DNA of 64,000 nt, taken from assembly GCA_964460615.1 (NCBI GenBank), contig CAYWPX010000003.1, positions 155,028 to 219,027 of the forward strand. Direction: 5' to 3'. This stretch comes from an uncultured Planctomycetia bacterium. GTDB taxonomy: Bacteria > Omnitrophota > Gorgyraeia > CAYWPX01. The notes below the pieces were generated by a model. That model was given only the letters and a program-made list of their open reading frames with translations, was not told the origin of the DNA and made no database searches. Positions 1 through 62,459 of this stretch are shown one piece after another. Each line of letters begins with the position of its first letter. Positions within the stretch are counted from its first letter, which is position 1. The translations under genes were made by a program, and so were the position numbers.

Positions 1-3000
1 AGCGCTTTGGCTCCAACTGAAAGCTTATCGTTTAAAGAAATCATTGCTGAAGGCTCTAATTTGAATCTATCGCTCAATCCTACTCCTCCAAAATTAGTTG
101 CATTAGGCTCCCAGAACCATGTACCAGGCTTTGGAGAACCGGGGAAGTATTTTGACGCGCCAAACCCAAGAGCAAGATGCAACTTAGGATCATTGTTAAA
201 TATAACGCCGTTAATATCAATGCCACCGAATGCAGTCCCACCTTGGGTAGCTCCAAGTAAACCTTTAAGACTTATTCTCCCGCCGTTATTAAGCCCGTAT
301 GTTGTGCCAGCTCCTATGTAACCGGCAGGCGTGCTTCCTGTGTTAACGTCAGAATTCGGAATCTGCAGGCCGCCATACATCAAATAATAATTTCTGAAGA
401 ATGTTGCGCCCTGCACCTGAGAAAGCGTAGCTTCTCCGGTAGGAGTCTTTAGCAGGTTAGTTCCGCCTGAAATAACAGTCTGGCCGGCGTTTATAAATAT
501 CGGCTTTGACCATGCACTTGCTATTCCAGCCTGTCCTTCCTGAGAAACTATCCTGACCCTTACATATTTGTGTCCGAAACTCTGATCACAGCTAATTGTA
601 GTCTGAATATCAGAATATGTCTTAGTATAGCCGCCTTCCGGGAACTCAGGGTATTTAGAAGTCTGGACAACATATATAGTCTTTCCATATGTAGCTCCAT
701 TAGGCTCACTAACTGTAACATTAAAGCCTAAATCATTAGGTATGACTCCTGTAACCGTAGGAGCATCCATGGCTTCTGGGATATTCAGATTAGATATACT
801 GCCAACATAAGGCGTACCCTCAACCAAACCAGCCATGTTTCCGGTGCAAGGAGTAATTCTTGCAAATTTAAGGCCCGGTGTCTGGTTTTTAATATATGCC
901 CTGACCTTGCCCGAAGAAGGCTGAACTACATAATCTTCGACAAATACCTCATTGCTATTATCAAAGGATCCGGAAGCATTAGTAGTTACTTCGACCTTAT
1001 AAGCTGTGGCGCCCGGGACCATATCAAATTCTACCCAGTAGTTGCCCTTAGACTCTGTGAAACCGTTAATAGCCTTCAATTGAGTAGGCAAAGCAAAGAA
1101 CATGGATACAGGATCTGACCACGAAACCACCTGCGCTCCGTCTGGGCCATCTTCAAATATTGCGTACCTGACCCACTTGTGAGTTCCGGTGCTGTCATAG
1201 CTTCTATTGAGATACTGGCTCATGGTGGTTCCATCCGGATAGTATTCAGCAACCGGCTTGACAAATTTGCTGGTTGAACTATCAACTGAGAAGTACTGAT
1301 CATTAGATGTCTGTATCGCCAATCTCTGGCCCGGGCTTGTCTTAGTCCAGCTCAACTGATAGCCCATAACCGGGTAATAGTTAACCCCAAAAACCGATGA
1401 AGGCGAAGGCATCTCAGCGCTTGATATCAGCGATTTATCAACAGTTTTTACATTAGCAGATTTTACAGGGCCCATCTTGTTGCCATGAAGAACTATGATA
1501 GCATAGTTATCATAAAGCGTAGTCTTGCTCCAAAGGTTTATATAACCAACTGAAGAGCTCTGGTTCTTACCTACGCCAACTATCTTAACTCCGCTTGCTA
1601 GTTCTCCGTTCTGAACAAAAACAGGGCTAGCGCCATTTACTCCGACAAGCATGTAGGTAACGTCATATTTATCGCTTGTGCCGGGTATTGTTTCGCCGGT
1701 TGCATAAGGAGTATTAAACGTAAGTTTGTTGCCTGAGATCGAAGGAGTTGATAAGCTGGCAGCATTCAAAGCCGATGGCGCATCTATCGCCTGTGATAAA
1801 GCATATTCTGTCCATCCGCCGACTGGGTATCCGTTTTCATCGATCTTTCTTATGCGGACCTTTGTATGGCCTTCGCTCTTATATAAGTAAGCGCTTGTAG
1901 CATCACTTGCGGTACCATAGACTGATACAGGACCAGTGGTAAAGTCTGTAGCTGTAGTCTGGATCTCAAGCCTTGCGCCATTTGCCCAGTTAAGCTCATA
2001 AGCGCTTCCATTAAGAGGGTTCTGTGCATTAATACCGATTTCTTCTCCGGCGCTTACTATCTGAGTAGCCGAGAGATCAACTTCTTTATACTGGTCTATA
2101 GAGGTTAATGACTGGGTTGATTTTACCTGACCGGTTGTTAATCCATGTAAAACAATTATAGCTGCCTTCTTGAAGGACTTATCAGTTATATTCACATAAC
2201 CTGTGCCATCGGCCAAATTGGTTCCCATGCCGATTATCTGTACGCCTGGCGCCAATTCTCCTTCAGCTCCGACAAATACTCCGTCGCCGTCTTCATTGAG
2301 ATTATTGGTACCGACAAGCATATAAGTAACAGTATATTTACTTGAGCTTCCAGGAACAGTATCACCGGTAACACCCTTGAAGGTGATCTTATCATTACCG
2401 ACAGATATATCAGCAAGATTGGCAGATTTTGCACTAGGAGCTACTATATTAATATTTACAGTTGTATACCCTGTAACCGGATGTCCATACTGGTCAACCT
2501 GACGGATCCTCAGTTTTTTGTGGCCAAGCGACTTATATAAGTTAAGAGCCGAAGTTCCGGCAGGAACTGAGTATGTAACAACATTGCTTGTGAACTTGCC
2601 ATCTACTTCTGTGAAATCACCGTCTGTTGTCTGAATATCTATAGCTTTCGAAGTATCAGTCCAGCTGTATGTATATTTACCGTCAAATGTACCTGCCTGA
2701 GCAGTCGGAATAGTCATTCCGGTGACTTTGGCAGTAACATCAAGAATCTGATTTGATACACCTTGAGTTGATTTTGCATAACCATCTTGTAATCCGTGGA
2801 GCACAATGATGGCAAAATTACTGAATGATTTATCCCAAACATTCGCATAGCCTCTGCCACCGGCGTTGGTACCGGAACCGACTACGCTTATAGAGCTGGC
2901 AGAATAAGGCTCACCGTCTTTAACGGTTATAGGACTATTTGAACCAACAACAATGTATGTAACTTTATAACTTCCATTTTCAGGATTTACTGCATTGAAA

Positions 3001-6000: not shown

Positions 6001-7080
6001 GAGCTAAGGCCGCTCGCTGTCAATGGGTTTCTGGAACTAATGGCAGGAATCCTCATAGCACCTGTAAACTCAGTTACAAAATTCCCATTATCATCTACTA
6101 ATGCCAGCCTTATATAAGTATCACCGTCAGCCCCTACAAGCCTAACATGATTGGATCCGGCAGCGGCAGTATTCCCTTGAATAATTCTAGTATTTTTGAA
6201 TGTTCTATCTTTAGAAGTATTTACTGCAAGCCTGTAACCTGCCGGCAGGTTGTTAAATACCAACTTATTTCCGTCAACTATGTGAGCGCCGATATTAGCC
6301 GCTGTAAGACCGGTTGCCCCAAGCGGATTAAGTACCTGCACATTGTGTAAAGCAACTGCTTTAGAGGCATTGCCTCTAACGAATTGGTTCTTTACTCCTG
6401 TAAGAGCTCTTACTCTTATCGCCTTTGCATTAGTAATAGGAATAAAGAATTTAACGGTGCCATTAACAGGATGATCTATATAATATCTCTTGACATATCT
6501 TTCGCTGGAAAATACCCTGTTTGCTGCATCATTTTCAGTTTCACCAGATAATTTTCTGATAGGTGCAGTGGAAATTTCTATCTCATAACCTGTCGCACCC
6601 GGAACCGATGCAAATGTGAAGAGATTCGTTCCGGTCGTATTCCTGAAAGTACTGGCATTCGGTGGATTAGCCGCTGCGGGAGCTTCAAAACCAAGCCTTG
6701 TCAAATTGCCGGAAGTATAAGCATTACCGGTCTCTCTTTTCTTAATAGAACCGTTAGCCCCTCTTTCCAGCACTCTTATAGTATAAATTCTAACATATTT
6801 ATGCCCAGCGCTGCTTTTAAGATAAACTGAAGTGTTGTTTGCGCCTCTTACTGAATACCCGACGGTCTTACTGTTCGGGAAGGTCGGATCGGATGAGGTC
6901 TGAACATAATATTCTATATCGCCGGTTGTATTAGCCGGTTTGGCCCATGACAACTTATAGTCATTTGTTATCTTGAATGTGGTAGCAACGGGTGGTTGCG
7001 TAGCACGTCTTGGGACCAGGTTTGACAGGTTCAATGCCTCTGCAGGAGTGGTTATCGCAGGATTACCCAACAATGTCACT
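1..7080 (-). repeat. C-terminal array of at least 12 Ig/FN3-like beta-sandwich modules (continues beyond the window)
   Basis: Recurrent module signature …W…P…(I/V)QTS(S/K)xxxF…Y…LYKSxGH(T/K)Y(V/I)R(V/I)…D(E/A)NG…WSE. Examples: GHTYVRYAIV, KYMRVALV, KYIRVALATD, TYIRLALVDDNG, GHKYVRIYTI, GHTKIRVRTVDENG, GHTKVRIRKIDENG, GHKKLRIRQVDQYG. Confidence 0.55.
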
Positions 7081-10000
7081 CCAAGTAATATCGTTGCGAC
7101 AATTCTCTTATTGGCGATCTTTGAAATTGCCTTCAAAAGGCCTGCTCTTAATCTAGGAATAAATCCGATATTGTCAACGACAGAACCTTCTCCGCCATTG
7201 AGGCCATATGTAAGCATTCCGTCTTCATTCTCAGTAGCAACTACAGAACCAAATTTTTCAAGTAACTCATTAAGCTGATTCTCGGCTTCAACCCTGCTTA
7301 CCCCGAATTCACTTGCATAAGAATAGATATCGTAAGAAACATCGTTTGCAAGCATATTGCAATAAGCCATATTGATATTAAGAGTTTTTCTTGAGGTAAA
7401 GTTATGATAGTAATAAGTAACACCGTCCTGCGTATCGCTCTTTATGTTGCTATTGTTGAGAACGAGATTTTCTAAAATTGCCTCCAAATCCTCGTCTTCA
7501 GATTCGCCGTATAACTCCCTTACCTTGTCAAGAGTGATGACATCTCCCTCCATCATCCTGTTATAGAGAGTAGCTGAAGTTAATTCTTCAAATGAAATAT
7601 CAGGATCTGTAATAGCGTTGAACCTATATAACAACCTGCCGTCATCAGAACGTGATTTTATGACTTCTCCGGAGAATATATTATAAGCATAACCAAGATC
7701 TCTATTGGCGGTAGAATAGCTGATCTTACCGTCTTCGCCGAAGTGTTCGACAAGAGCATCTCTATATTCCTTGATTGTAATATAAGCACCACCCTTAGAC
7801 TGGAGATATGCCATAAGGAAGTTAAGGCGTTCCATCCTCTTATCAACTTTTTCTGCGCCGGCCAAAGCTGCATCTGAAATTTCGGCGTCAAGAACAAACG
7901 TATCATTAATATATACAAGCACCTCATTTGCCTCGGCTTCGGTCAAGTCACCTCTCATATAAGCGGCCTGGAGCATTGAAGCGACTTCACCCAGCGACAT
8001 TATCTCGTCGTTATCTATCAAATAACTTAAGTTAAGCTTCCATATTTCCTTATCAAGTTTGTCTTCTTCGGCTTCTTCTGCCTCAGCATGGGTCTTTGGT
8101 TCGCCCAGGACCGCTGTATGTTCCATCATCTCGTGAAGTACCTGCCTAAAGAGAGCTTCCCCGGTTAAATAGCTTGTAACAACAATATCGCCTGAATTAA
8201 TGTCTGCTCTATTAAGATTAGCCGCCTCAATATCAGAAACAACGTGGCCGCTCACATAAAGCATTCTTCCGAATTCGCCTTCTTCGTCCAATAACTGCAA
8301 GGCTATGGAAGGCGCCCCGCTGGCATTTGTAACAAGCTTGACTCTACCGGAATCGATAAAGTTCATTGCTTCATTATACTCATCTGTCCCTGAACCAAAG
8401 TAGTTCCTGAATCCTTCTTCTAATGCCGCATATGCGTCAATATCATTAACAGCTTCATCTACAGCTGCTTCAGCTAATGCATCCTGAAGCTCTAAACCAA
8501 CCTCCGGATGCGATGAACCCTTGTTGATCAATTTGTCTGAATCAATTATCTTCTTACCGGACAGCGGATCTATGCCTCTTCTAAGCATGTCTACCCACGC
8601 TGTTGCACCCACATGGGCAAATCTGTTATCTAAAGGATAAAGTTGTCCGTCTTCGCCGACAATAGCTATGATGCCGCCATTATATTCAACGACTTTACTG
8701 AATTGAGAATATAAAGCTGCGCCCTTTTCATCGTCCCCAGTCAAAAACGCCAACATAGCAGCACCTGCTGTTAATTCAGAGTTAAACGACGGACTGCCTT
8801 CGACAACCTTAGACGCATACCCTTCAAGAGTAACTTTACCGTAAGAAACTTTATTAAGGGATATTTTGTCAAGGTATGGGAGAGTATTAAATGTAGCAGG
8901 ATCTATACCTGTAACATCCTTGGTCGCATATAATGCTAAAGGCGCCCAAATATTGTGAGTAGTAGGCTCTTCGCTTGAATAATTCGGATAAATGAACTTT
9001 CCAGTGCCTTCATCAGTTGTACCAACCAAGAAGTTTTCACCTGTCCACATACCGCCCTGAGACACATTCTTGGTCATCCATGTTAAGGCAAGTTTACCGG
9101 CATCGATATACTTCTGGTTACCGATAACTTGTCCCAATTTGATGAGCGCAGCTCCTGCAGTAGCATTATGTTCGGTTGAGGCCCATTCAATAGGGATATA
9201 ATACTTGGTATCATAGTTATCTCCCAGATAATCGGCGTTTGGATATTCAAGTCCGCCCTTTATCGCTCCGTATATAGGACTTGAAGAGTTCACTATCTGG
9301 AACTGTGACACCCATTCGGCTGCTTTTGTAGCTGCATCAAGGTATTTGGCATCATGGGTCTTTTCATATAAGTTAGTTAAGAACATGATATTCCATGAAA
9401 CAGGGCCAACCGCTATATTACCGGCATTAATCTGGCCGTTAACATCATAACCGTCTACCCACCCGCCTCTAAGGTTTATACCTTTTACAACAACGCTTTG
9501 TTTAAACTGTTTTGATATCAGGTTATCTGCAAGTACCTTAGCAGTCGCAAGATCCTGCTGAGTACCGCTTGCAACAAGCGAAATGCCGGTAACACCGACG
9601 TCATACGTCCAGCTGGAACTGTTGTTATACTGCTTGTAGCTCCTTAAAACTCCGTCAGAAGATATCTGGTCTCTTAAGAATGTTTCCATATTGGCTACGG
9701 AAACAACCGCCGGGCCGGTCTTCAAGGCATCCATAAGTTTCGGCCCGCCTACAATACCTCCGATTCCTAAGGTAGCAATGAGTACCGCTACAAACGCTTT
9801 TTTATCTTTTACCCATTTTATAAGCTGGTCTATCCTTGAAACATTAGGAGTAAGTATTTTATCTGTGATCTGAATAGCTTCTTGAACATTAGTATCATCA
9901 ATAGCATCCTGTAGTAACGAAAGTATTCCATCATCACCTCTGGCTAACAATGCCTCTCGTATCTCAGGATAATAAACCCCTTCGGTTTTGGCATATTCAA

Positions 10001-42266: not shown

Positions 42267-42269
42267 CTA
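42267..42269 (-). other. Single in-frame TAG inside a YD-repeat (…ITTYNIYGDM-TAG-SVQDKNGRKTYYKNFRDSKGDLIKRYEK…)
   Basis: Verified by reverse-complementing 42181-42281. The same frame and repeat register continue on both sides. The next in-frame ATG is 166 codons downstream (41769-41771). Confidence 0.9.
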
Positions 42270-54200: not shown

Positions 54201-57200
54201 TCCATCTTTATAGGTATGGAACTCATAATAGTTTCCTTTAGCCTGGAAAACTATCTTATATCCTGAAATACTTTCTACGGTATTATCGCTTGAATAACCG
54301 CCAAGGGTACGATCGGCCCACTGTGCTTTTTCTACGCTTATAAGCTTGAAATCAGCACTGACAAGGTTAAAGATATCAAACTGCGCATCTTTAAGAGCTG
54401 TTCTAGTGACAAGATATGCCTTAGCATCACTGACTAAGGTATACATATCGCTTAGCTCAGGTATTAAATATGCATTTGTAAGATTTGTGTGGAATTCGTA
54501 GGTTTTAGCGCCATAGCTAAGGATTATTTTATAGCCTTCTGTATCGGTCCCTGAAGGCGTAATATCCGTCCTGTATCCGCCGAGTGTCTCATCATCCCAG
54601 ATCATTTTCTGCACAGAAGCTATAGCAACGGCTTTCTTATCATCTGTTGTTGAGCCAATGAAACTCTTGGACACAAGTGCGTTGATAGAACTATATATAA
54701 GAGGTATTGTCACAGCATTAAGGTTAGTGGCACAATAAAGAGTTGTTGCGCCTTTTCTTAAATGGTATTCGGCTACTAACCCGCCAAATGTAAAAAAGAG
54801 TTTATACCCTTTTACATTCTTAGTTGTAGAAAGACCTGTTGGATCAAAGCCGCCCAAAGTATCATCGGCAAATGTATATTCCTGCATCCCTTCAAATTTA
54901 ATTTCTGAAGCACTTGAGATCGGGGCAACTGTCCTAATTTTATTATATAAATCTGTCCTGGCGGAAGCTACATCGTTTGTAAGTACATTTATAATTGCAG
55001 GATCCATATATGTCTTTGAATCAGGATCGGCAAGTACCGAGTTATACATATATAGGAAATTATTGGCTGAGAAGAAGAACCTGTATGCAGTGGTTTCGTT
55101 ATCAAAAGTTCCTTCGGGGTCAGCCTCTTTGGTACGCAATGTCTGTATCTGAGAATTGGTCAGGGCCTTGTTATATATCCTCACTTCATCAATAACGCCG
55201 TCCCATTTACCATAGTTAGCTGACTGCCATATACCGATAGATGTGGTACTAGCAGTTGATGTATAGGCAGGCAATAAACCTGTTTTTAAGGTTGAAGCTA
55301 TGCCGTCAACATAGAGTTGCCCCGTACCCTTATCAGAATCATATGCCAAAGCCACAAAATGCATCTTGCCGTCGTTAATATTCACATCTGAAGTAAAATA
55401 TGTTTCCGTAGTGCCGCCGTTACCTACTCGCGCGCCAACCTTGCCATCATTGCCAACATAGATCATATAATTCTGGGTATAACCACTGCCGCCTTCGCCG
55501 CGAGATACAATAGTCCTGAAGTTTTGCCCCGTAATAGGCCCATCCCATTTAAACCATGACGTGACCGTGAAATTACTTAAAGAAAGATTATTATTATTCC
55601 CAAGGCTTATATAATCACTTGTTCCATTAAAATTATACCCTCTGCCGCTCTGGCCATTTACTAGTACAGGTGAACCATAAATAGTCCCGTTATAGTTATT
55701 ACCTGTCATATCATTGGCATTACCGTCAAATTTGTAAAATGCGGCCATATCTGTATTATTTACGGGAGTACCTTCGAGGATATTCTTAAGTGTAATATCT
55801 TCTTCGGATATGCCAGTCCTTGCTGCAAGGTCTGCAATGCTATTCTTAAATGCATTGACCTTCTGGGTTAAATTTGGTTCCGGATATGCCTCTCCGGTAG
55901 TAATATCTATAATATATGTTATCGGTAGACCTTTATAGCTGAATTTAACCTTTAATCCGGCGGTAGGCGTCAGCATTGTTGTATCATCATCGCTTCTATA
56001 ACCATCAAAGTCATAATCGCTGAATATTTTGCTCTCAACCGAACTTATGCTCATATTATTAACATTAAATGAAAAATCTGAGACAATATCCAGCTTGGCA
56101 TTATTCACTATCTGCCTTACACGATCAGCGGAAATAGTGACATCCTTATCTGTTGTAAGGGCTGTGCTTTTACCATCGGCATCAAAAATGAACGCTGTAC
56201 CGTCAATATTAGTGATTTTCTCGACTTTACCGTTTGCGCCATATTGAATAATTATCCCGCCGCCATTCTGGGTTGAGGATTCTACGGCAGATACGGATTC
56301 TACAAGCCTGTTTATAAGCTCAGGATTTATTGAAAGGATATACTGATACCTGTCACTCGGTATGATAAAGCCAGTCCCCGGTGTACCTTCAAACCCCCAG
56401 AAATTCAGATTGTTGTTATCAAGATAGGTTTCGATCTCAAGTATTGCATTAAGGAAGCCTGTCTGATCCATAAAATCAGCGGTTAAAAGTTTGTTTCTAT
56501 AGTTCTTTACAAAATAAGCAGCTCTGTCAGCAGGTACGTTGCTGGAATTCAACTCAAAGTAATCCAGGTCCTTTGTGGTACCATCCGGATAAGTAACTCT
56601 GATAGTATTTTCATCAATAATTGAATATGTCGTTCCGACTGCATCACCAAAATCATTGATATTGTTTGTTGCTATAGAATCATTATTGACGACATATTTA
56701 TAATTATCGATAGCCCTTAATAGGCACTCTGATATTACATTGCCGTTATTCTGAAGGAGATACCCAAGCCTTGAGCCAGGCATGCTAGTAGCGTCATAAA
56801 GTGACCCTATCGGATCTCCAAACGAATTCAGGTTGAGTGATTTTAGGATATCATTTATTATAGAAATTCCTTTTGAACTATAATTAAAGGTATAAGTCTC
56901 ACCGGTTGTCTCTGTGATCTTTATCACAAGGCCGTCAATATTGAAATCAAGCTTTCTGCCCTTAGAATCATATATGGACAATACATTGCCATTTTCGTCT
57001 CTATTGAGCTGGTTAACTGAAGTTGTACCGCTGGAAACAATAACTTTAATTATCTGTCCGCTCGAATCCTTTATATAAGTATAAACCTTTATACCTGAAC
57101 TTGTCATAATAGTAGAAACCATGCCGTCATTATTATAAGTAGTTACATTACCATCATAATCCTCAGATGAAATAAGTTTTTCACCCTGAATCACTCCTCC

Positions 57201-60200
57201 TTCATAAATATATTCAAATCTTAATTCATATTCACCGTCAGTAACAGTCTTAAATGAGGGCAACCCTGTCTCCGGATCAAACTCGTAACCGTAGAAAACT
57301 CCGTCTTCTTCCGTAATAATTGGATTCATGCCCGTGTCAATGGCATTAAAATTTTCATATGTACTGACAACGCCGCTTGGGCTGATCTTTTTGATCTCAA
57401 GGATGCTTTTTCCTGTGATGTTATTATCGTCATCATAAGCATAATCCCATGTATATCTGACTTCTGAATTATCTGGGTATACTATTCTATTGACAGACCC
57501 GTTAGAGTCGTAGAATTTTTTCATAGTGTCGCTTGTCCCGGCACCTGCTTCACTGATAAATTCACTCATTGGATCCATTGCAAAATCGCTGTAGTTGGTC
57601 CCGAATGTGGCAGGATTATAATTCTTAAAACCGGGCTGCTGGTCTATGAAGCTATTATTAAGATAAAAATCAGGATATGTGGCAAACAACCTTGAATCAA
57701 AAGTCAAGGTAGACGCCCAAAAAACGTTATTCTCAAATACATTAATATCTTCAGGCGCTACTGAAGTTTTAAGCTGGTAATTAACCGCCATTTCCTGCGG
57801 ATTGATTATGATATTATTTCGGATAGTCGGATTGGCCTGAATGATGTTTATAGCCATTTTTGTATTATTGATAGTATTATTTTCTATCAGAGGGTCACTA
57901 GGCTCGTAGGCAGCATCGCTGAAAGATTCCAGCTCAAATCCTCTAGTCATATTATTAATAACATTATCTTTTATAATACCGCCAAATCTGCCCCATCCTT
58001 TTATGGCAGTGCTGTAGAAAAATGAGCTATAATAAGGTATTACTTCACCATAGTAAGTCCCTGAACTAAAATAGTTATTGGTTATTGTAGCTGCTGCATA
58101 ATCAAGAAAGATACCGGCATCTCTAGTATCAAGGAATTTGTTATTATTAATGAGTATGTTATAATCTGTATCCATATATTCAGTATAGGAGCCGCTTATC
58201 CAACCAACGCCTATTGCCCCACCGTTGCCACCTGAACCCATATACCTGAATGTATTATTTTCGATAGTAACATTCCTTGACCTGTCAACCCAAATTCCGT
58301 ACCTTGGGCCATTATTATATATACCTTCGAATGTGATACCGCTTATTACTACGTCATTAGCATGGTCCACCGCGACCATGCTTGTATACCCGCCTATATT
58401 TTTAACGATTTTTGTCTTATCCGCTCCCTGGCCAAGAAGCCTTACTCCCTGTTTTAGTTTAATGCTGCCGGAATAAAAATTAAATGTACCTTCACCGAGC
58501 ATAACCGTATCGCCATAATTTGCAGAGTTAATTGCGGCTTGTATTACCCCTTCGGCGTTAGCGCCGTATGTTGATTTAAAATAAGCCGTGCTCATACTTC
58601 TCGGCGAGCCGTTATTTATAGTATAGGTTATACTGCTATTATTAGTTCCGTAGAAACCCACAACGGTAATAAGCCCGCTTGTTGCATTAAAGGTTGTCCC
58701 TACGACAAGCTCTCCGGTCCATGGATTAATAGGGGCGTCAACATATATGGTATTGCCGACTTCCTGTCCAAGAATATTTTTGTTCTCGTCATCAGTAAGA
58801 AGTACTGCACCGTCTATTTCCTCAGAAGTAAGAATCTCTCCATTAAACTTTTCTTTAAACTCCTCTATTGATTCGGTTACTGATACACCGTTATCGTTAT
58901 AATTTACATTTCCATCGGCAACTGAAACAATAACAACATAGTGATTGCCGTTTATAAAAGCCACTCCTGGCTGCGTAATCTTTACAAGGTCGTTATCAGG
59001 ATCGATTTTATAGGCCTTAAGATCAAATCCTTTTGCATTGGCGTATCTAGCTATACTTTCAAAGGAGATCTTAAGATCAGCATTTGAATCCTTCAGTTCA
59101 GTGGTAACCCCTGTCAGGATATCATAGAGAATAGTTGCTATAGCTATTTTTTCCTTTTCCTGGTCAGGGAAAAAATAATTTAATACATTAGTTGCGCAGT
59201 TAATTATGTTCGTAATCTGATTATTAAGATAAGAAATTATCCCATTAATTCCTGTCTGTGTTAAAAGTACGGGATTGGTCCCGGACAATATATTTCTGAT
59301 ACCGGCATACTGGTCATTAGCCGTATCCATCACGCTTTCAAGAAATGTCCTTATGACATCAATAACCCTTGAAGCCATTTGAGAAACATTGGTTAGCGGC
59401 GTCAGGTTAAGTGAATCAAAATAATTCGAAATCTTCGTAAATACATCGAGTGATTGTTCCTCGTCAAGCTGGGCCTTATTGCTGTACCACTCGCCGTTAA
59501 GCTTTTCAAGCTTTATTTTAAATACAAGCGTCTGGCCGGCCATCGGATGAGTACCGGTAAGCCCGTATGCCCTTTCCGGAGGAATAACAACGGTTACTTC
59601 TTCGCCAAGCCTGAGACCTACTACCGCATCTTCAAATCCTTTAATAACAGATCCGCTGCCGATACTGAAATTTAATAACGTAGAAGAATTTTCATTAGTA
59701 TCAAAAACCTCTCCATTAAGGTAAGAACCTGTATATTTGACGCCTATCGCGTCCCCTAATTTCGCAAAATCAACCTCATTGCCTGATTTAACAACTGTTT
59801 CGCCTACGATCTCTTCATATGTACCATCAGATTTAATGACAAACTTGCCAAGTATATTTCCTTCGCCGTCTTTCTTGTAAGCGTATTCGGTTTTCTTGCC
59901 GGTTTTATCGGTCTCCGAAACTAAAAAACCGTTTGCATCTCTCTCGATTTTTGAGCCATCACTAAATATAACAGTAGTAGATATTGTTGTGCCGGCAGTA
60001 TCTGTGCGTTTTGTAAAGGTAGAGTTCAGATAAACCCTGAATTTCGCAAGATCAATTTCCCTGATGCCATCCCCATTTATATCCTGGCCTGCAACATCAG
60101 AACCGAATTTATTGACAAGAGCCTTTACGAGAGAATCCCAGCCTGCATCCGTTACATAGCTCTTCCACATAGTAGGGTAACTTCCGGTAGTATCCCAAGT

Positions 60201-62459
60201 AGTATCAAAATTCGACCAATCTATTTCCGTTTCAAGGTCCGCCACATCGTCTGCTGAAATTCCGGACAAGGCATAATCAATATCGCTTGTTTCGTATTGA
60301 TCATTAGAAATTACGGTTCTTCTCTTAACTTCATCCTTAATTATATTTCTTAGCTGTTCAATATTTATATTGACCGTTTCATCAATTAAATCAATGCCCT
60401 CCTGAGTTCCCGCTGCCTGGGCGGGCATTTCAGGAGCTTCTTCACTCTTCTTGCCGGCGCTTCCTTGAGGCGGCTTAACCATCGGCAACTCATTATCTTC
60501 ATCAGTAGCGGCTCTACGTCCAGTTATTAATTGATCAAGCCAGTCAACAAAATTGGCTAATCCAAGGCTCTGAATAAAATATATTGCCTGTAACTGATAA
60601 TCCTGTTTTTTAGAAAATTTGTCTATAAGGTTTTTCGTAGAATCTGCTATCGTACTAACAGTTGACGGAAGCGGCGCGAACATTCTCTGGATATAAGCAG
60701 AAAAAGCGGCATTTGCGTCTTCCTGTTCCTTTTTATAAAGCGGGTCGTTATTATCTCCGATACCATTTTTATTTACATCCGACCATTCGTTTAGATCGAA
60801 AGGAAACGCGTCAACATCATCCGTATAACCATCCGCATCCGAATCATCGTCTTTAATTAGGCCCGTTGTTGAGGTGCCTGTTATAGTATCTGGTTTACCG
60901 TCCTTATCAGTATCTTTAGAGGCAGATGCATCCAGTGGGAAAGCGTCTATATTGTCATTTACTCCATCGACATCACTGTCAACCAATGCGGGATTCAAAC
61001 CCTTCATAAGCTCATCTTTATCTAAAATTCCATCACCATCAGAATCACTTGACAATGGGTTAATGCCCCTATCCAGCTCTTCTTTGTCAGGCACCCCATC
61101 CGCATCCGAATCGTTAGTCAATGGATTCGTCCCAATCGTAAGTTCATTATTATCATTAATACCATCGTTATCGGTATCTTCAATGAGAGGATTTGTACCT
61201 AACTCGATCTCCCTTAAGTTTGTTACTCCATCGTTATCATTATCAGGGAATTCTTCTCCTATAACCTGATCATTCAAATCCAAATGAGTAATCTTCCCTA
61301 CTAAATTAGAAGCTGCAAGCTCTTTCAGGTCATAACCGGTAAGGACGCCGTTGGCATACACATATTCCCTGATAGTCCCGTTATTATAAACTTCCTTGAG
61401 TATCTGGCCGTCCTGAGAAATGTATGTCTGATCATTGGTTTCTGTGTTCTTTATGACAATCCCATTAATATTGTATATGAATTCATATACTACATTATCC
61501 TGGCCCATCAAAGATTTTAACCTGTTAGAATAATCATATTTAAGGGTTAAAGTAGGAGTGACAACCGTTGTTTCAACAATATTCTCACTGGCATCTCTCG
61601 CATAGGAATAATTATCCTCTGTCCCATCCTGATAGATAATTTTACTTATTAAATTATTTTCAAATAACACCACTTTATTATCGCTGGCATATTTTATGGA
61701 CAGAACCTTGTTATCAGGGCTATAAGTAACTATATCGCCGTTATTAAGCGTTGCTATAATTTTAGCGACATTTCCTTCATTATCCAATTCATACGAATAA
61801 TTAGTTGTGACTCCGTCTTTAGTATAAGAAGATATTCTGCCATTATCAAAATTTATAGTTTCGCCGGAAGTAAATGTGTAAGAAACAATATTTCCATTTT
61901 CATTATATATGAGGAAACTACCGTTGGATTTAGTTATAGTGATCTGTGTTATTTTAGTGGGATCGGTTTGATCAAAAACATAGGAATAGACAGCTACATC
62001 GCCGGTTGCTTCAGTTATAGTATCTATAAGATTATTATTGAATGTAACTACTTTGCCGTCTTCATATACCTGGCTGACTACATTACCGGTTGCATCAATA
62101 TTGGTTGTCACGACATTACCGGGAACGGTTTCTTTGTTAAGCGCTTTATTCTGAGCTTCTTCAAGCGCCTGCATTTCTTTTACAAGTTCTTCCTGTCTAG
62201 ACTGGGCATCCTGTTGTGTACTTAACGGCACAGATTGTCTTTCTTGACGCTGTTGCATTAATTCTCTGATGTCTGCAGCCCTAGAAACTTCCTGAAACAA
62301 AAAAGTAAAAACTAGCACGGATGCAATTGTTTTGAGCCAAAATCTACGCCTAGCTGATCTCCACTCGAGAATGCTCAAAAGCTCTGCTTCGGTCCTGTCA
62401 TCGTAAAATGACATCTCACCCACATCATCTCTTGGTCTAATTTTTTCTTCGTTTGTCAT
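42267..62459 (-). CDS. Giant multidomain surface protein, N-terminal 6730-aa segment (start ATG at 62457-62459; ends at the in-frame TAG 42267-42269)
   Basis: ORF track gives 6730 aa with no stop. AAGGA lies 7 nt upstream of the ATG. The N-terminus carries one hydrophobic helix (FWLKTIASVLVFTFLFQEV). The protein is rich in T/Y/D/N/G/S and full of YD repeats (YxYDxxGN-type), with LamG, beta-helix, FKBP and TSP3 motifs. Confidence 0.9.
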   Translation of the reverse strand: MTNEEKIRPRDDVGEMSFYDDRTEAELLSILEWRSARRRFWLKTIASVLVFTFLFQEVSRAADIRELMQQRQERQSVPLSTQQDAQSRQEELVKEMQALEEAQNKALNKETVPGNVVTTNIDATGNVVSQVYEDGKVVTFNNNLIDTITEATGDVAVYSYVFDQTDPTKITQITITKSNGSFLIYNENGNIVSYTFTSGETINFDNGRISSYTKDGVTTNYSYELDNEGNVAKIIATLNNGDIVTYSPDNKVLSIKYASDNKVVLFENNLISKIIYQDGTEDNYSYARDASENIVETTVVTPTLTLKYDYSNRLKSLMGQDNVVYEFIYNINGIVIKNTETNDQTYISQDGQILKEVYNNGTIREYVYANGVLTGYDLKELAASNLVGKITHLDLNDQVIGEEFPDNDNDGVTNLREIELGTNPLIEDTDNDGINDNNELTIGTNPLTNDSDADGVPDKEELDRGINPLSSDSDGDGILDKDELMKGLNPALVDSDVDGVNDNIDAFPLDASASKDTDKDGKPDTITGTSTTGLIKDDDSDADGYTDDVDAFPFDLNEWSDVNKNGIGDNNDPLYKKEQEDANAAFSAYIQRMFAPLPSTVSTIADSTKNLIDKFSKKQDYQLQAIYFIQSLGLANFVDWLDQLITGRRAATDEDNELPMVKPPQGSAGKKSEEAPEMPAQAAGTQEGIDLIDETVNINIEQLRNIIKDEVKRRTVISNDQYETSDIDYALSGISADDVADLETEIDWSNFDTTWDTTGSYPTMWKSYVTDAGWDSLVKALVNKFGSDVAGQDINGDGIREIDLAKFRVYLNSTFTKRTDTAGTTISTTVIFSDGSKIERDANGFLVSETDKTGKKTEYAYKKDGEGNILGKFVIKSDGTYEEIVGETVVKSGNEVDFAKLGDAIGVKYTGSYLNGEVFDTNENSSTLLNFSIGSGSVIKGFEDAVVGLRLGEEVTVVIPPERAYGLTGTHPMAGQTLVFKIKLEKLNGEWYSNKAQLDEEQSLDVFTKISNYFDSLNLTPLTNVSQMASRVIDVIRTFLESVMDTANDQYAGIRNILSGTNPVLLTQTGINGIISYLNNQITNIINCATNVLNYFFPDQEKEKIAIATILYDILTGVTTELKDSNADLKISFESIARYANAKGFDLKAYKIDPDNDLVKITQPGVAFINGNHYVVIVSVADGNVNYNDNGVSVTESIEEFKEKFNGEILTSEEIDGAVLLTDDENKNILGQEVGNTIYVDAPINPWTGELVVGTTFNATSGLITVVGFYGTNNSSITYTINNGSPRSMSTAYFKSTYGANAEGVIQAAINSANYGDTVMLGEGTFNFYSGSIKLKQGVRLLGQGADKTKIVKNIGGYTSMVAVDHANDVVISGITFEGIYNNGPRYGIWVDRSRNVTIENNTFRYMGSGGNGGAIGVGWISGSYTEYMDTDYNILINNNKFLDTRDAGIFLDYAAATITNNYFSSGTYYGEVIPYYSSFFYSTAIKGWGRFGGIIKDNVINNMTRGFELESFSDAAYEPSDPLIENNTINNTKMAINIIQANPTIRNNIIINPQEMAVNYQLKTSVAPEDINVFENNVFWASTLTFDSRLFATYPDFYLNNSFIDQQPGFKNYNPATFGTNYSDFAMDPMSEFISEAGAGTSDTMKKFYDSNGSVNRIVYPDNSEVRYTWDYAYDDDNNITGKSILEIKKISPSGVVSTYENFNAIDTGMNPIITEEDGVFYGYEFDPETGLPSFKTVTDGEYELRFEYIYEGGVIQGEKLISSEDYDGNVTTYNNDGMVSTIMTSSGIKVYTYIKDSSGQIIKVIVSSGTTSVNQLNRDENGNVLSIYDSKGRKLDFNIDGLVIKITETTGETYTFNYSSKGISIINDILKSLNLNSFGDPIGSLYDATSMPGSRLGYLLQNNGNVISECLLRAIDNYKYVVNNDSIATNNINDFGDAVGTTYSIIDENTIRVTYPDGTTKDLDYFELNSSNVPADRAAYFVKNYRNKLLTADFMDQTGFLNAILEIETYLDNNNLNFWGFEGTPGTGFIIPSDRYQYILSINPELINRLVESVSAVESSTQNGGGIIIQYGANGKVEKITNIDGTAFIFDADGKSTALTTDKDVTISADRVRQIVNNAKLDIVSDFSFNVNNMSISSVESKIFSDYDFDGYRSDDDTTMLTPTAGLKVKFSYKGLPITYIIDITTGEAYPEPNLTQKVNAFKNSIADLAARTGISEEDITLKNILEGTPVNNTDMAAFYKFDGNANDMTGNNYNGTIYGSPVLVNGQSGRGYNFNGTSDYISLGNNNNLSLSNFTVTSWFKWDGPITGQNFRTIVSRGEGGSGYTQNYMIYVGNDGKVGARVGNGGTTETYFTSDVNINDGKMHFVALAYDSDKGTGQLYVDGIASTLKTGLLPAYTSTASTTSIGIWQSANYGKWDGVIDEVRIYNKALTNSQIQTLRTKEADPEGTFDNETTAYRFFFSANNFLYMYNSVLADPDSKTYMDPAIINVLTNDVASARTDLYNKIRTVAPISSASEIKFEGMQEYTFADDTLGGFDPTGLSTTKNVKGYKLFFTFGGLVAEYHLRKGATTLYCATNLNAVTIPLIYSSINALVSKSFIGSTTDDKKAVAIASVQKMIWDDETLGGYRTDITPSGTDTEGYKIILSYGAKTYEFHTNLTNAYLIPELSDMYTLVSDAKAYLVTRTALKDAQFDIFNLVSADFKLISVEKAQWADRTLGGYSSDNTVESISGYKIVFQAKGNYYEFHTYKDGAINKIYLDPVMDNTASFGNNIGAIKNAISNLSTFLACDKNKIKFVSMIRPEGEDYKIVLKYKGITYEYDYDGTTLTLKPIMAGQPLVNGKKLIEAIAKDLYENIAGYGVGKYDLYFGEEITLAGIVNYNWADSTLDGYDLTGDKNVPASGYVVKLNYKGMVFEYHYNASNGRFFLNPNIKLYDAVKVSFKVDELGRLKSITDSNGQDIFYLYGINKYGESTTFNSKVSLDTVTEYDVNGNRLSTSYYDGSKITYYVTNDERNGLTKEVFDSMGALGYRYIYTVDAAGQVETRTLLAGPLYQGSISAIKHDMSMGIDYSLLSIDTANTGNGVWTFKPVRFGTTNLQLVNQLVDTSDTDYNLTRGLFNIDLTVEDSEAAGVTHTIIVNSVGVVIRYDGEDVENGKIVFTINKNDTLRVELRNEITSGKGAYSWSLLTDGSLTPVADASSNLTLKGTKLGSEYLNFYNPITKESFFVSLSIEEAEEGYTPKTVIVTATNNINSSITLKMGDVVKFDLDSNWKLSPRVDTMHYYVYNAFGDIDHDVAQDGTTIYYSTDDEDKGIIIRKVDKYGRTIYDRNSENKPVTVTDKYGNFYYYEYLVDGEGYTMTKVTLMDGTPGAPGTNSIRIWKYNELGELISEMDARYPQSEITYQYFKNSSGKITGKLEIGLNIHNMYEYAPDGKLTRVTDIKNKVSTYTYTKDSENKDITLVETEKYIQTFNSDGDLIKNESKVNADDVTTYKYVKDPNGALIAKYEMKNNVVLTKYEYTKIGLTRMVPDSTGKFNEKVDPLVETKKVQNFPTSDVLANIFKQYSKVNDASPDVLLTTDENPMGYSFAPTRVLVKLNNGFTGADLDAIINEIKTVYGITNITKELISGVTYKITFTPGDVIETKYTYERDYFNSITNSIITETNKVTYINSQGDVTKIVDKSAKTVTTFSYLKDASYGFNTQVTETIGDDANGDGEISGAETSYVNSIKYYDSKGRITALIDKGGIASGDTQSSPSIKYYYDPVTDLLNRAYTKSENTTSFYYDSMVTDSLEKGVVWRVEAGDVATPGSGTLKATYNYEYDESTGNMLWYDEVAYDTFVLDKYDGTTENLNTVVTINKKIEYVYTTTKPYRLMMIKAKDKAGKITRHYYNTSTGELVRSYSEENNLTYFYDAKNNISDIYEGDLGAKDISKLKTHYDYTYDASGQITRSVETRYIASGTVTATETNTTDFDSIGRISKVTDKAGHEYFYYYQSNPADPTPDKAKFNKLNYIYDQYNDTTSFYNNAGLLKSVYKGNSANPSVTDLLYRYVYSASDFASDYNYILLKDRKIGYKRLEGASSGGYGNEDFTNTGIRYDKQLVTNYSQGTVEFWYQPEWASGKDTSILKCATTDTVSSTSYLGIYMRKAGTANNKIYFRYGVNETNAVTLDLDAPADDSPFKFANFNNKWHHFAITWSGGRFYAYIDGTLIGSATFATPSLPSTFYFGNGSVNATSRGLNGTVDNIVGFNYGKTLDQLKEDYLSTPLFGATGQTFFDDFEGTNSATGRVAITGNIAKGGLITLSETYDTTYYNGRTGDPAYTDVAAKRGKSKTQLDVLNNRTYAYEYDNFGNLKYVYDQKNNQTSYYDDKANVTDIYKGNGDAAKLPANLLYHYDYTFDENGNIIQRKDTRKVTVDGGQVMDDVTTNIYDINEGKIVEVIDNNNNKFYYEYTPVWINGVQHMGDLRTIYDEFNGQTTFYDATGNVTDVYKGDYRGYNNFIMNLNGYLSPETHLVHYNYYMDSKGAIKRSVEKYFEKKATGQSLFIGNNQAVDYSRTGILSTFATGTLDMWVKPMDVTSVHNYFYLGAGGTGGTEQHLRLAFDPTSIGGGKVKGFIFTMGNGTSKTEIAMNGNVEVGEWYKLTVTWNFSATTKFVALYVNGEQRAYRDNTTTFYYPTTISSTTYPKFRIGNVYTVTTTGANAFIDNIRFTSSTVTGRSQVADDYKGLYPGNVTTLFSADYEGSVNGTVTGTKVGMATEFYKAGITVQPTVTTKFYYNNDDDAGSANIGKVYRSFNRVETDRTKIDNIQYTYDAEGYLLYSEDKTGSPNKKIVYNKRGLMTEYYEWVSTAYVLKKTYSYAYSDANGNLGDVLSQTEYITGTQKYNVTTFNSYGKIDTVIAYDNNGTTVLGRYKYYYDTESLVGVSYAIEKTDPTTNAKTTDYFNKDNFVEDTYAGVYGDLTKQLYHYEYTFSVYGNNLEMETSIRFDMTKPSDTVPVAGDIYFYRSGKYYYVYDKSIYKTNTNGYTATVGDVVSSINQNGAVTDYVYSGGKLSYTTYKPNGVDGAGALRTYYKDNPLDATQRVADYVYGWNSGTTYNVPVSKYYVYSSISDTIRSNDVKFISYEYDMSNYAIGTDLSTFNPQTGTYANLFTKRGYLTNNFNGNLMCIIDKNGARTDYFYNTNGLAFSFDQTKKQFTYYDDKNQPRDVYKGTYSTTPDENALKLSGWLYHYEYTFDSKLTLQTIKEYDKVNGNGLSIREYDEDGNLTAYTDRFNNRTTYTYTNGILTKSHDLSRKRTTLYYTTGIEKGQPSDIYYDQNGLGTGEYYQLKHYTYTFTANVYNISTSTETSYDKVNGGGETLTTTSTTTYNYTTVGGYTFVQNYYITDSDNWKTYYYFDVTANYGALLRSYSERDKQVTEFDNTGNPVAIYRYLGSTAYTGVAPVGVNYALLADYAYTYDTNNLIRTVTSNNYDKDSYNNVITQTSTTTYFYSGNSVEHTEMTDSTGNVIKNYYNTDSGRLISSYNKASNTTSFFDAYSGEVTSVYNNDYTPNKTKVAADLRNSYAYTYNATTGNVTNITETRYNDSGVANGTVISDLYYNSATGNKKLINKIVVIKDKMGNVTDKVRYAYDSDREAISKIYNYYKNETSTLDNFGQVLVVYKGNMLGEDLDNDAVIDAGEDIDQDGTLDAAIALSNQYRVRSYLYTYQSGRLVKSEEIVYYDYISDVSFKSYKNVTTYEYETVNGIAKVKKVTVKDENDKIKGIYFYNTTSDKLDSVYDPSQNELTYYDTNSSPLNIFEASLDASNNVIKGNQKYWLVNTYDATYTDRLITVAKYKGASLTVDNLLNKSYFSVADGRVEKQEFFNGSATPETTRTYVYVNGVLATAKEQSTDSRGQETLVTYFYEGTSGNERMVRMIDPSNSMETYYFYKGEITPDPNVIGATLNLTGITLDIDSDEAGSDNADMDYCISVRKLMDGSVERTVTVFQGTGNSEKVAVIYSLGADTTYKSNIHPRTLYYYDSATGKLINTTESNPNRPNALAQGVTSLTRYADVDGEQRAVSYESYDSVITYVYKDDGNLDYTITKDKRSYYGAQTSYYDADGKITLIKDKNEIMYYFEYPTDANGYNNYAIGYSKTVQKIYYKRSGAEVVSVSKEEYTAHSTDPAYFVVSSSKEYNNNSEMIESVDENGISTKYSYLKDSASGRTKYMYTSMTYTDPTNASNVITNVKGYEYYVESTVPASVPASQKAGWIGQIKALIDENGHKTMYSNYAFDDKGNVASVRETDWAFRGEDVNGNGVLDAGEDTNSNGQLDSKYLDKYFVTETGSINTYGDLTMVGELDYSKDNKGNRIYYQYNKDYKGNRTRITQTFFSYEGGATDPYSYSMTTYYNADGSIKALTDKNGNNSSFTYEWDNKLNVIASHETTTRHEDINNDGTYEYIEVKKTKNFYINGAVMSEVEDRKGTDAQFNKTITFTYTNDSLGNTTKMRRTTTYKDDINQDGVADQTITFYEDTEYNLEGDVVKFTDKNSRVTEYAYLKDALGNVTSSIEKASYRDTDINCDGVIDANDQVTNYSQKFFEDGSLVSIIDQNGAETRIGYERFATGDIKKRIEYKKIGKDITTGDEQFVATGTIEYDLLGNPIASTNEYGIVKNITYNRNYRGEITEVINTTPARNNKVERVVMDPRSGDNLQSIDNNGNITKFSYTKDAKGNILTATQTKTNASGVNYVDSITTYNIYGDM
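48359..48899 (-). other. LamG-like domain 3
   Basis: GTLDMWVKPMDVTSVHNYFYLGAGG…GEWYKLTVTWNFSATTKFVALYVNGEQRAY. Confidence 0.55.
49814..50249 (-). other. LamG-like domain 2
   Basis: QGTVEFWYQPEWASGKDTSILKCATTD…NNKWHHFAITWSGGRFYAYIDGTLIG. Confidence 0.55.
53684..54929 (-). repeat. Five tandem copies of an uncharacterised module of about 95 aa (about 285 nt)
   Basis: Protein repeats: FADDTLGGFDPTGLSTTKNVKGYKLFFTFGG…EYHL; WDDETLGGYRTDITPSGTDTEGYKIILSYG…EFHT; WADRTLGGYSSDNTVESISGYKIVFQAKG…EFHT; …EDYKIVLKYKGITYEYDY; WADSTLDGYDLTGDKNVPASGYVVKLNYKG…EYHY. The periodicity is also visible at nucleotide level, for example …gttttagcgccatagctaaggattattttatagcc… and …gtttcctttagcctggaaaactatcttatatcc…. 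Confidence 0.6.
55169..55775 (-). other. LamG / concanavalin-A-like lectin domain 1
   Basis: AFYKFDGNANDMTGNNYNGTIYGSP…SWFKWDG…HFVALAYD…LYVDG…WDGVIDEVRIYNKALT. Confidence 0.6.
57660..58590 (-). other. Right-handed parallel beta-helix (pectate-lyase-like) region
   Basis: Repeated NNxxxxN rungs: VTIENNTFRY, ILINNNKFLD, TITNNYFSS, IKDNVINN, LIENNTINN, TIRNNIIINP, VFENNVFW. Confidence 0.65.
58890..59280 (-). other. Possible papain-like (C39-like) cysteine peptidase domain
   Basis: A Cys in NIINCATNVL, followed about 85 aa later by GNHYVVIVSVADGNVNY (His then Asp). The spacing resembles the C39 family. This is motif-level evidence only. Confidence 0.3.
59531..59789 (-). other. FKBP-type peptidyl-prolyl isomerase domain
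   Basis: GVKYTGSYLNGEVFDTNE…NFSIGSGSVIKGFEDAVVGLRLGEEVTVVIPPERAYGLTGTHPMAGQTLVFKIKLEKL, a typical FKBP C-terminal signature. Confidence 0.7.
60734..61277 (-). repeat. Thrombospondin type-3-like Asp-rich Ca-binding repeats (about 10 units)
   Basis: Repeated DxDxDGxxDxxE and TNPLxxDSDxDG motifs: DNDNDGVTNLREIELGTNPLIEDTDNDGINDNNELTIGTNPLTNDSDADGVPDKEELDRGINPLSSDSDGDGILDKDE…. Confidence 0.65.
62286..62342 (-). other. N-terminal transmembrane signal-anchor helix (residues about 40-58)
   Basis: RRFWLKTIASVLVFTFLFQEV is preceded by basic residues and followed by a coiled-coil-like segment rich in Q, E and R. Confidence 0.7.

Follow-up and report, generated by a model that had tools for sequence, protein, structure and literature searches.

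A giant reading frame in an Omnitrophota contig and the putative membrane-anchored surface protein that it encodes

The giant reading frame and its in-frame TAG

We analyzed a stretch of 64,000 nucleotides, hereafter the window, from an uncultured bacterium deposited as a member of the Planctomycetia and placed in the Omnitrophota by GTDB (assembly GCA_964460615.1, contig CAYWPX010000003.1, positions 155,028 to 219,027). One phase of the minus strand, the giant frame, runs through nearly the whole of it. This phase is free of stop codons over positions 42270-62480 (6737 codons) and again over positions 3-42266 (14088 codons), where it exits the window start, its C-terminus lying outside the window. 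Counted from the ATG at 62459, which has a Shine-Dalgarno-like AGGA about 8 nt to its 5' side, the frame consists of 20,818 sense codons and a single in-frame TAG. Since the other two minus-strand phases contain 1414 and 2415 stops, its openness is not due to chance. Residues are numbered from this ATG, so that nt = 62459-3(aa-1) for any amino acid (aa) position. A preliminary description of this DNA, made from its letters and open reading frames (ORFs), had proposed a giant frame encoding an entire envelope-spanning apparatus. The single phase is confirmed throughout, but its continuity is broken by the TAG at 42267-42269, which that description had omitted.

The frame is homogeneous in composition. 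The GC content at third codon positions (GC3) is uniform, between 0.33 and 0.41 in all 14 blocks of 1,500 codons, and the GC skew is negative and uniform across the whole stretch. We found no direct DNA repeats of at least 40 bp, no tRNA genes and no marker genes in the window. Only 26 Cys are encoded among the 20,818 residues (0.1%), and His accounts for 0.8%. Hydrophobic residues make up about 27-30% of the blocks that we call exterior-type from their domains, against 39-41% of the cytoplasm-type blocks, a contrast consistent with the membrane sidedness proposed below.

The TAG lies within a YD repeat (...TTYNIYGDM(stop)SVQDKNGRKTYY..., also written ...TTYNIYGDM(stop)SVQDKNGRKTYYKNF...), at a variable position of the YD pattern G-x-[LM]-x-x-V-x-D-x-x-G that the other copies most often fill with Lys. 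AAG, CAG and GAG each differ from this codon by one base. It is 1,600 residues upstream of the first cluster of transmembrane (TM) segments and not at a module boundary. The next in-frame start is a TTG 70 codons on and the first ATG comes 166 codons on, neither of them preceded by a Shine-Dalgarno sequence. No relatives of the site were detected by a word-index search with the 500 aa around the TAG or by a genome-contig scan with the flanking peptides, and metagenome scans returned no match either to the exact 44-nt pattern around the TAG or to a protein query. Most likely, the TAG is a base-call error or a population variant; second in likelihood is a very recent nonsense mutation, and last programmed read-through. 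It is most likely not a gene boundary. Under the improbable reading of a self-translocating polyprotein, given below, the codon might act as a regulated read-through point governing how much short adhesin is made relative to the full apparatus.

Table 1. Features of the giant frame and its surroundings (window positions; the slash marks a predicted cleavage site)
Feature	Position (nt)	Residues (aa)	Strand	Remarks
Upstream same-strand gene with Laminin_G_3 domain	62746..63981		-	411-aa ORF
First ORF of the giant frame	42267..62459		-	ATG to TAG, 6730 aa
Second stretch, same frame	3..42266		-	14088 open codons, no C-terminus in window
N-terminal signal anchor or cleavable signal peptide	62286..62342	40-58	-	RRR-FWLKTIASVLVFTFLFQEV-SRA/AD
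RHS/YD repeats		~120 to ~7100	-	several matches; Pfam PF05593, NCBIfam TIGR01643
TSP3_bac		428-447	-	sole TSP3 repeat above Pfam cut-off
FKBP-type peptidyl-prolyl isomerase (FKBP_C)	59508..59765	899-984	-	3.6e-20
Peptidase C39	58821..59198	~1088-1213	-	PF03412 at aa 1131-1213
Right-handed beta-helix (pectate-lyase-like / NosD-like)	57762..58493	1323-1566	-	Pfam; Beta_helix at aa 1388-1566
Laminin_G_3 (ConA-like lectin) domain 1	55143..55628	2278-2439	-	1.3e-24
Self-similar YD/RHS-rich stretch	41130..51962	~3500-7110 (approximate)	-	spans the TAG
Laminin_G_3 domain 2	48333..48836	4542-4709	-	1.6e-21
Single in-frame TAG	42267-42269	codon 6731	-	within YD repeat
DUF7402	40053..40493	7323-7469	-	Pfam
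TM cluster	36807..37451	8337-8551	-	hydropathy
SecA-like DEAD-motor module	26535..29642	~10940-11975	-	helicase motifs and fold match
Membrane-embedded GT2 module	16677..18878	14528-15261	-	helices and catalytic domain
Glyco_trans_2_3 (PF13632) catalytic domain		14638-14897	-	TDKD, SED, RHKKW motifs
PHP phosphoesterase domain, N-terminal part	11532..11822	16880-16976	-	HYH at 16882
Single hydrophobic helix	9741..9797	17555-17573	-	positive N-flank KWVKDKK
C5-epimerase C-terminal-like stretch (C5-epim_C)	9042..9191	17757-17806	-	24.2 bits vs cut-off 23.3, marginal
Internal Sec-signal-peptide-like segment	7035..7133	18443-18475	-	KAISKIANKR-IVATILLGVTLLGNPAITT-PAEA/L
Tandem FN3-like beta-sandwich array	360..6992	~18490-20700	-	self-comparison, model

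Modules of the predicted protein

The frame was searched against Pfam as overlapping tiles of 1,100 aa and then as shorter pieces at relaxed thresholds, and its exterior part also against NCBIfam. The first ~8,300 residues form the exterior-type block, in which YD/RHS repeats occur together with lectin-like, beta-helix and enzyme domains (table 1). YD/RHS repeats extending over several thousand residues are shared with TcB-TcC of the RHS/Tc toxins, with bacterial Rhs proteins and with teneurins. The window gene differs from these shell proteins in that no RHS core domain was matched in NCBIfam over most of aa 100-8600 (aa 1101-2899 being outside the scan), the YD region has no DPxGL-type aspartyl autoprotease motif, and no recognizable C-terminal toxin follows the repeats. 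The Peptidase_C39 match (1.4e-9; 38.3 bits, cut-off 22) is confined to profile positions 45-129. Because of this restriction, Cys1088 (NCATNVL) is a presumed catalytic Cys, read by eye together with a His at about 1171 (GNHYVVIV) and an Asp (YNDNG). Compared with bacteriocin-type Peptidase C39, the domain has the profile match and, by eye, the Cys/His pair, but there is no double-glycine leader-like site anywhere in the frame, and Pfam revealed no ABC transporter domain in it. A second, Cys-less C39-like domain considered at aa 8325-8470 was rejected, having no Pfam support and no BLAST match to the first C39. The stretch of aa 8301-8480 (37020-37559, minus strand), just before a strong TM helix, resembles by eye the C-terminal half of a Cys-less C39 (DEHFMVV...ENGVERVLKLRDFVQRWDGKAMV). 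Were this visual impression correct, the TM segment at aa 8337 would be a buried helix.

Downstream of the first TM cluster lies a putative motor carrying helicase motifs I, II, III, V and VI (aa 10990-11620): AGTGKT at about aa 11015, DEAD at 11147, FSGFSGT at about 11402, then ATRGID and RDRG. Some 250 residues are inserted between motifs II (DEAD) and III (SGT), which is the position of the preprotein-binding domain in SecA. In Pfam the module matched only generic superfamily 2 P-loop families (ResIII, E 4e-4; DEAD, 0.05) and neither SecA_DEAD (PF07517) nor PPXD (PF01043). Among nine members of the motor family (alignment A1, drawn from an exhaustive HMMER search of 1.84 billion representative proteins), only ResIII and DEAD recur, next to single weak matches to four unrelated families. 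The profile of this family gave only insignificant P-loop matches against the PDB, and a PDB sequence search with aa 6732-20819 in three chunks gave no match. An AlphaFold2 (AF2) model of the module extending to aa 11650 has a predicted local distance difference test score (pLDDT) of 71, with low values after residue 650. The top nine Foldseek matches of this model in the PDB are all SecA or SecA2 (E 2.5e-10 to 3e-6), in alignments of 650-700 columns.

These matches support, by a modest margin, the designation SecA-like at the level of the fold; membership of the SecA family by profile fails. With SecA and SecA2 the module would share a DEAD motor of two RecA domains and the large insertion between motifs II and III, SecA being its best structural match. 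It differs in its 11-15% identity, in the missing PF07517 match and in being embedded in a giant membrane protein, and it is not known to interact with SecY. Since such a module is divergent enough to escape profile searches, catalogues built on PF07517 undercount modules of this kind.

The motor module is the only part of the frame for which we found relatives in giant ORFs, 26 in the HMMER search. All are long ORFs or fragments thereof, up to 7,836 aa, and some take up an entire contig. MDP3789433.1 is the nearest, with 49% identity over 328 aa and 69% over the core. In the fragments that reach far enough upstream, TM clusters precede the module, within which a hydrophobic peak occurs in a single fragment. 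Eight relatives carry an organism name, and seven of these come from metagenome-assembled genomes of Candidatus Omnitrophota/Omnitrophica. The eighth (MCK5600406.1, P0017) was deposited as "Candidatus Pacearchaeota archaeon", a label that could reflect a binning error or be the trace of contact with an archaeal host. A word-index search with the module retrieved no homologues, a genome-contig scan with its N-terminal part nothing, and a literature search by the relatives' assembly accessions no paper.

At two of the related loci, L003 and L004, the motor ORF ends 1,400-1,600 aa after the module and is followed by other large, separate ORFs. The preliminary description had suggested that the blocks of the giant frame might be found elsewhere as adjacent genes. 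The ORFs that follow here have no detectable similarity to the downstream blocks of the window and no significant Pfam match, so that fusion by stop loss is not demonstrated by these loci; giant-gene loci of this type are plastic. At L004 (GCA_018817165.1, JAHITY010000041.1) the called ATG at position 203 is probably internal because the frame is open to the contig end.

Further downstream, the catalytic domain of the GT2 module is preceded by two strong hydrophobic segments (aa 14528-14546 and 14558-14576) and followed by six or seven (within aa 14882-15261). PF13632 and flanking hydrophobic helices are common to this module and the processive GT2 synthases BcsA, hyaluronan synthase and chitin synthase. 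It differs from them in its variant motifs (TDKD for DxD, SED for (T)ED and RHKKW for QxxRW) and in being internal to a giant protein. Its sole relative in the word-index search is an ordinary stand-alone GT2 of 594 aa. The PHP domain comes next, then a single helix and the marginal C5-epimerase-like stretch, which has a weaker pectic-acid-lyase-like stretch just upstream and sits between the two last hydrophobic segments of the window.

The second of these segments is part of a sequence resembling a Sec signal peptide, 18,400 residues into the frame and immediately before the C-terminal array. It combines a KR-rich n-region, a 13-residue h-region and an AxA-type site, PAEA/L, and may be what is left of a gene for a secreted protein that became fused. 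In self-comparison, the array repeats with two periods, about 100 and 210 aa, and many copies share the pattern "...LSWNAVSGADRYVV...". One 208-aa unit, modelled with AF2 from five sister units (alignment A2), folds into two beta-sandwiches with a pLDDT of 73. Its matches in the PDB are the FN3 proteins lambda gpJ, Tie2, integrin beta4 and LAR (E 2.6e-4 to 1e-2), and apart from a few antibody fragments low down the list contains FN3-domain proteins. The model and these matches support an array of the Ig/FN3 type. Behind it (positions 3-360, aa ~20700-20819), the frame is Gly-rich (...YGLNNGGRISLKGLLGATQGGTAFGGIDINGVIF...). The motif TYGLN(N)GG occurs in this part and also at aa 18418, just before the signal-peptide-like segment.

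Much of the domain order given in the preliminary description was thus recovered: the signal anchor, YD repeats, LamG (two domains), beta-helix and C39 by Pfam or hydropathy; the TM cluster near 37000 (nt 37451-36807); the SecA-like ATPase by its motifs and, at the fold level, by Foldseek; the GT2 with its own TM segments and the PHP domain by Pfam and flanking helices; the internal signal anchor near 7100 as a signal-peptide-like segment, whose hydrophobic core of aa 18453-18471 begins at nt 7103; and the Ig/FN3 array by its model and PDB matches. Other assignments were not borne out. In place of a discoidin domain there is only DUF7402, with no F5/8-type-C match at E<=10 and nothing significant in the PDB sequence search. 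For the kinases and the PI3K-like enzyme, a Pfam search covering most of the cytoplasm-type blocks at E<=5 gave no protein kinase or PI3K/PI4K match, and the frame has no match to a kinase catalytic loop (HRDxxxxN or DRHxxN, with DFG). Instead of two HExxH motifs there is one, at aa 12696 (about 0.07 being expected by chance from composition), around which relaxed Pfam searches revealed no metallopeptidase family. The FKBP domain, the helix at nt 9797 and the C5-epimerase-like stretch were absent from that description.

Membrane sidedness and competing interpretations

Hydrophobic segments were called from Kyte-Doolittle 19-mers, the Hessa biological scale and flank charges. Twelve segments have a Kyte-Doolittle 19-mer mean of at least 1.6 and about eight are weaker, the N-terminal anchor being just below the threshold. 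The first cluster contains a strong segment (aa 8479-8497), a doubtful one with two Glu (8337-8355) and a likewise strong stretch of 38 hydrophobic residues that may form one or two helices (8518-8551). Also doubtful are aa 11958-11976, within the conserved motor module, aa 15620-15638, with two Asp, and three Gly-rich stretches near aa 9857-9992. Between the PHP block and the FN3 array there are exactly two segments, at aa 17555 and 18453, both strongly hydrophobic and with strongly positive N-flanks, and nothing between them has a mean above 1.0. Exterior-type and cytoplasm-type blocks are thus split by hydrophobic clusters, as the preliminary description had proposed, and such segments lie both between the YD region and the ATPase and between the PHP domain and the FN3 array. 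The tidy alternation that it drew from them is not established, as two segments separate PHP and FN3.

Because ATP is required by the motor and nucleotide sugars by the catalytic domain of the GT2, both must be cytoplasmic. Such a placement is consistent with a crossing count that is odd at the first cluster, and with two helices ahead of the GT2 catalytic domain and six behind it. We consider it likely that the giant frame encodes an inner-membrane-anchored surface protein of the kind described from Omnitrophota, translated entirely or almost entirely as one chain exceeding 20,800 residues. The N-terminal signal anchor would send about 8,300 residues across the cytoplasmic membrane, the direction being deduced from hydropathy and charge. 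This exterior part, with its YD/RHS repeats, two LamG domains, beta-helix, DUF7402, TSP3, FKBP and C39, may form an adhesive stalk contacting prey or host. The hydrophobic cluster at aa 8337-8551 would bring the chain back to the cytoplasm, where a block of about 6,000 residues would carry the highly divergent SecA-like DEAD motor. Next, the membrane-embedded GT2, of processive type, could make and extrude a polysaccharide, and the PHP block would again be cytoplasmic. The last two hydrophobic segments would bracket the C5-epimerase/lyase-like block and lead into the FN3 array, which would continue beyond the window. Tethered in cis by the adjacent TM helices, the SecA-like motor might aid the export of the protein's own exterior segments, as West-Roberts et al. 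(2023) suggested for related giants.

Several observations weigh against this reading. Sidedness was derived from hydropathy and charge counts of our own. The return crossing at the first cluster depends on an odd count, to which the segment with two Glu (8337-8355) and the stretch of one or two helices (8518-8551) both contribute. Strict parity would put the C5-epimerase-like block outside and leave the FN3 array in the cytoplasm, on the same side as PHP, because two segments and not one separate the latter two; unless one of the assignments is wrong, the aa 18453 segment would serve as an internal signal peptide, which may be cleaved. West-Roberts et al. (2023) reported an ambiguity of this kind for such giants. 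The equivalence of the motor insertion to the preprotein-binding domain of SecA would be one of position only. Finally, a genuine TAG at which translation stops would limit the product to a 6,730-aa exterior protein, and the remainder would have no visible route to translation. A polytopic megaprotein or a polyprotein, as the preliminary description had it, is a reasonable interpretation.

The TAG is central to another interpretation, according to which it is genuine and the locus consists of two units: a gene for a 6,730-aa anchored or secreted YD/LamG adhesin, and 42 kb of downstream sequence that would be a very recently inactivated remnant or be expressed only upon suppression or read-through of the stop. 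The codon is present in the sequence as given, the first ORF on its own comes with a start codon, Shine-Dalgarno-like sequence and signal anchor and contains exclusively exterior-type domains, and the motor ORFs of L003 and L004, which end before further, separate large genes, indicate that splitting of such loci occurs. We nevertheless regard two units as unlikely, since the stop interrupts a YD repeat 1,600 residues before the TM cluster, at no domain or module boundary, and is followed by no restart codon for 70 codons and no Shine-Dalgarno sequence. Moreover, the 14,088 further open codons have the same GC3, which is unexpected for long-untranslated DNA, and one base change from AAG, CAG or GAG would suffice to give the TAG. 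An assembly artefact joining unrelated genes into a false giant frame, evidence for which the preliminary description had named as a refutation, is highly improbable. No support for it was found, the single in-frame stop being the only oddity. Joining unrelated pieces cannot give 6,737 and 14,088 open codons in one phase, no direct repeat of at least 40 bp is there to seed a misjoin, GC3 and GC skew are uniform, and the relatives are themselves giant ORFs that fill contigs.

If the chain is translated through, it might still not persist as one molecule. In a self-processing polyprotein, a precursor would be cut by its own C39 or by signal peptidase at PAEA/L (aa 18475), a possibility also raised by West-Roberts et al. 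(2023; 10.1101/2023.11.21.568195) and one to which we give some credence, while doubting it. The C39 domain is above the Pfam cut-off with candidate Cys, His and Asp residues, aa 18443-18475 look like a signal peptide of classic n-h-c build with a site of AxA type, and cleavage at aa 18475 would remove the parity conflict of the FN3 array. Of the self-processing put forward in the preliminary description, it is this one C39 domain that stands. Opposed to it are the lack of a double-glycine leader-like site in the frame and of an RHS core domain or DPxGL autoprotease motif in the YD region, the lone HExxH with no metallopeptidase family around it, and the orientation of the anchor, which places C39 among the exterior domains and at a distance from the cytoplasmic junctions. 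A more elaborate form, a self-translocating polyprotein, seems quite improbable to us: the motor would export the C5-epimerase-like block and, by way of the Sec-type signal peptide at aa 18443-18475, the FN3 array in cis, and signal peptidase would cut at PAEA/L, releasing or re-anchoring the array.

Relation to described giant proteins and neighbouring frames

Among predicted proteins, the giants of Omnitrophota rank with the longest known. West-Roberts et al. (2023; 10.1101/2023.11.21.568195) described Omnitrophota giant genes with C39 near an N-terminal signal peptide, divergent SecA DEAD domains that lack scaffold and wing, many TM helices whose placement is uncertain, glycosyl transferases and RHS-like beta structures. 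In their Dockerin type, a long TM-free N-terminal part precedes [quoted passage not shown]. They proposed self-export by the SecA-like domain and cleavage by C39, and their strict set comprises ORFs of 30 kAA (thousand amino acids) or more. The window gene shares with these giants a length of tens of kb, a C39 close to its signal sequence, a long TM-free N-terminal part with TSP3, RHS-like and lectin-like modules, numerous TM helices including a TM anchor followed downstream by the SecA DEAD-like motor, a glycosyl transferase, and motor relatives of which seven of the eight named ones are from Omnitrophota. Its 20,818 sense codons, at least 14,088 of them uninterrupted, exceed 10 kAA, and whether it reaches 30 kAA depends on the C-terminus beyond the window. 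Differences from the giants of West-Roberts et al. are a motor too divergent for PF07517, the in-frame TAG, and the addition of FKBP, PHP and an FN3 array behind an internal signal-peptide-like segment. The neighbourhood of those giants (type II secretion system, sugar import) lies beyond what the window shows.

The gene belongs to neither named subclass. The Dockerin type does not fit, as there is no dockerin (PF00404) match at any threshold in the Pfam scans and a single TSP3 repeat, nor does Archaeovorin, as the Pfam scans of the whole frame revealed no HEAT, GT1/GT5, methyltransferase or NUDIX domain. On every testable feature, the window gene nonetheless agrees with the described Omnitrophota giants. 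The phenomenon is not new, since the layout and both hypotheses, a polytopic giant and cleavage by C39, have already been published (10.1101/2023.11.21.568195).

A second survey, by Nielsen and Lui (2026; 10.64898/2026.06.07.730766), reported 3,650 proteins of at least 10 kAA in its samples. In its catalogue of 916 proteins, 94% have a TM helix or signal peptide and 39% combine a signal peptide with TM helices (SP+TM). Architecture clusters form around PF03412 and PF07517, and 80% of the sequence clusters are singletons. The window gene resembles the SP+TM and tandem-repeat-scaffold classes of this catalogue in its signal sequence, scattered TM helices (about 1-2% of residues), repeated modules of the LamG (PF13385) type and near-singleton sequence, and the C39 and SecA-DEAD architecture groups in its domains. 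With more than 20.8 kAA it is mid-range there, and nothing in the window ties it to any one cluster.

The gene leaves the current picture of Omnitrophota giants unchanged. It adds a copy with a comparatively clean order of modules: signal anchor, exterior block with C39 and FKBP, TM cluster, SecA-like motor, GT2, PHP, TM helix, C5-epimerase-like block, internal signal peptide and FN3 array. Its local interest lies in the extreme divergence of the motor, in the single TAG and in the internal signal-peptide-like segment, which with its parity conflict offers a concrete site at which to address whether such proteins are one chain or a cleaved polyprotein.

Upstream of the giant frame, the same strand carries a gene with a further Laminin_G_3 domain. 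Because its frame stays open as far as the window end (63999), the 411 aa of this ORF may represent the C-terminal portion of a longer protein; behind the first ATG of the window no signal peptide is present. Two antisense open frames on the plus strand lie inside the giant gene, at 26197-27246 (349 codons) and 42417-43241 (275 codons). They match no Pfam family and are probably chance by-products of codon usage on the sense strand.

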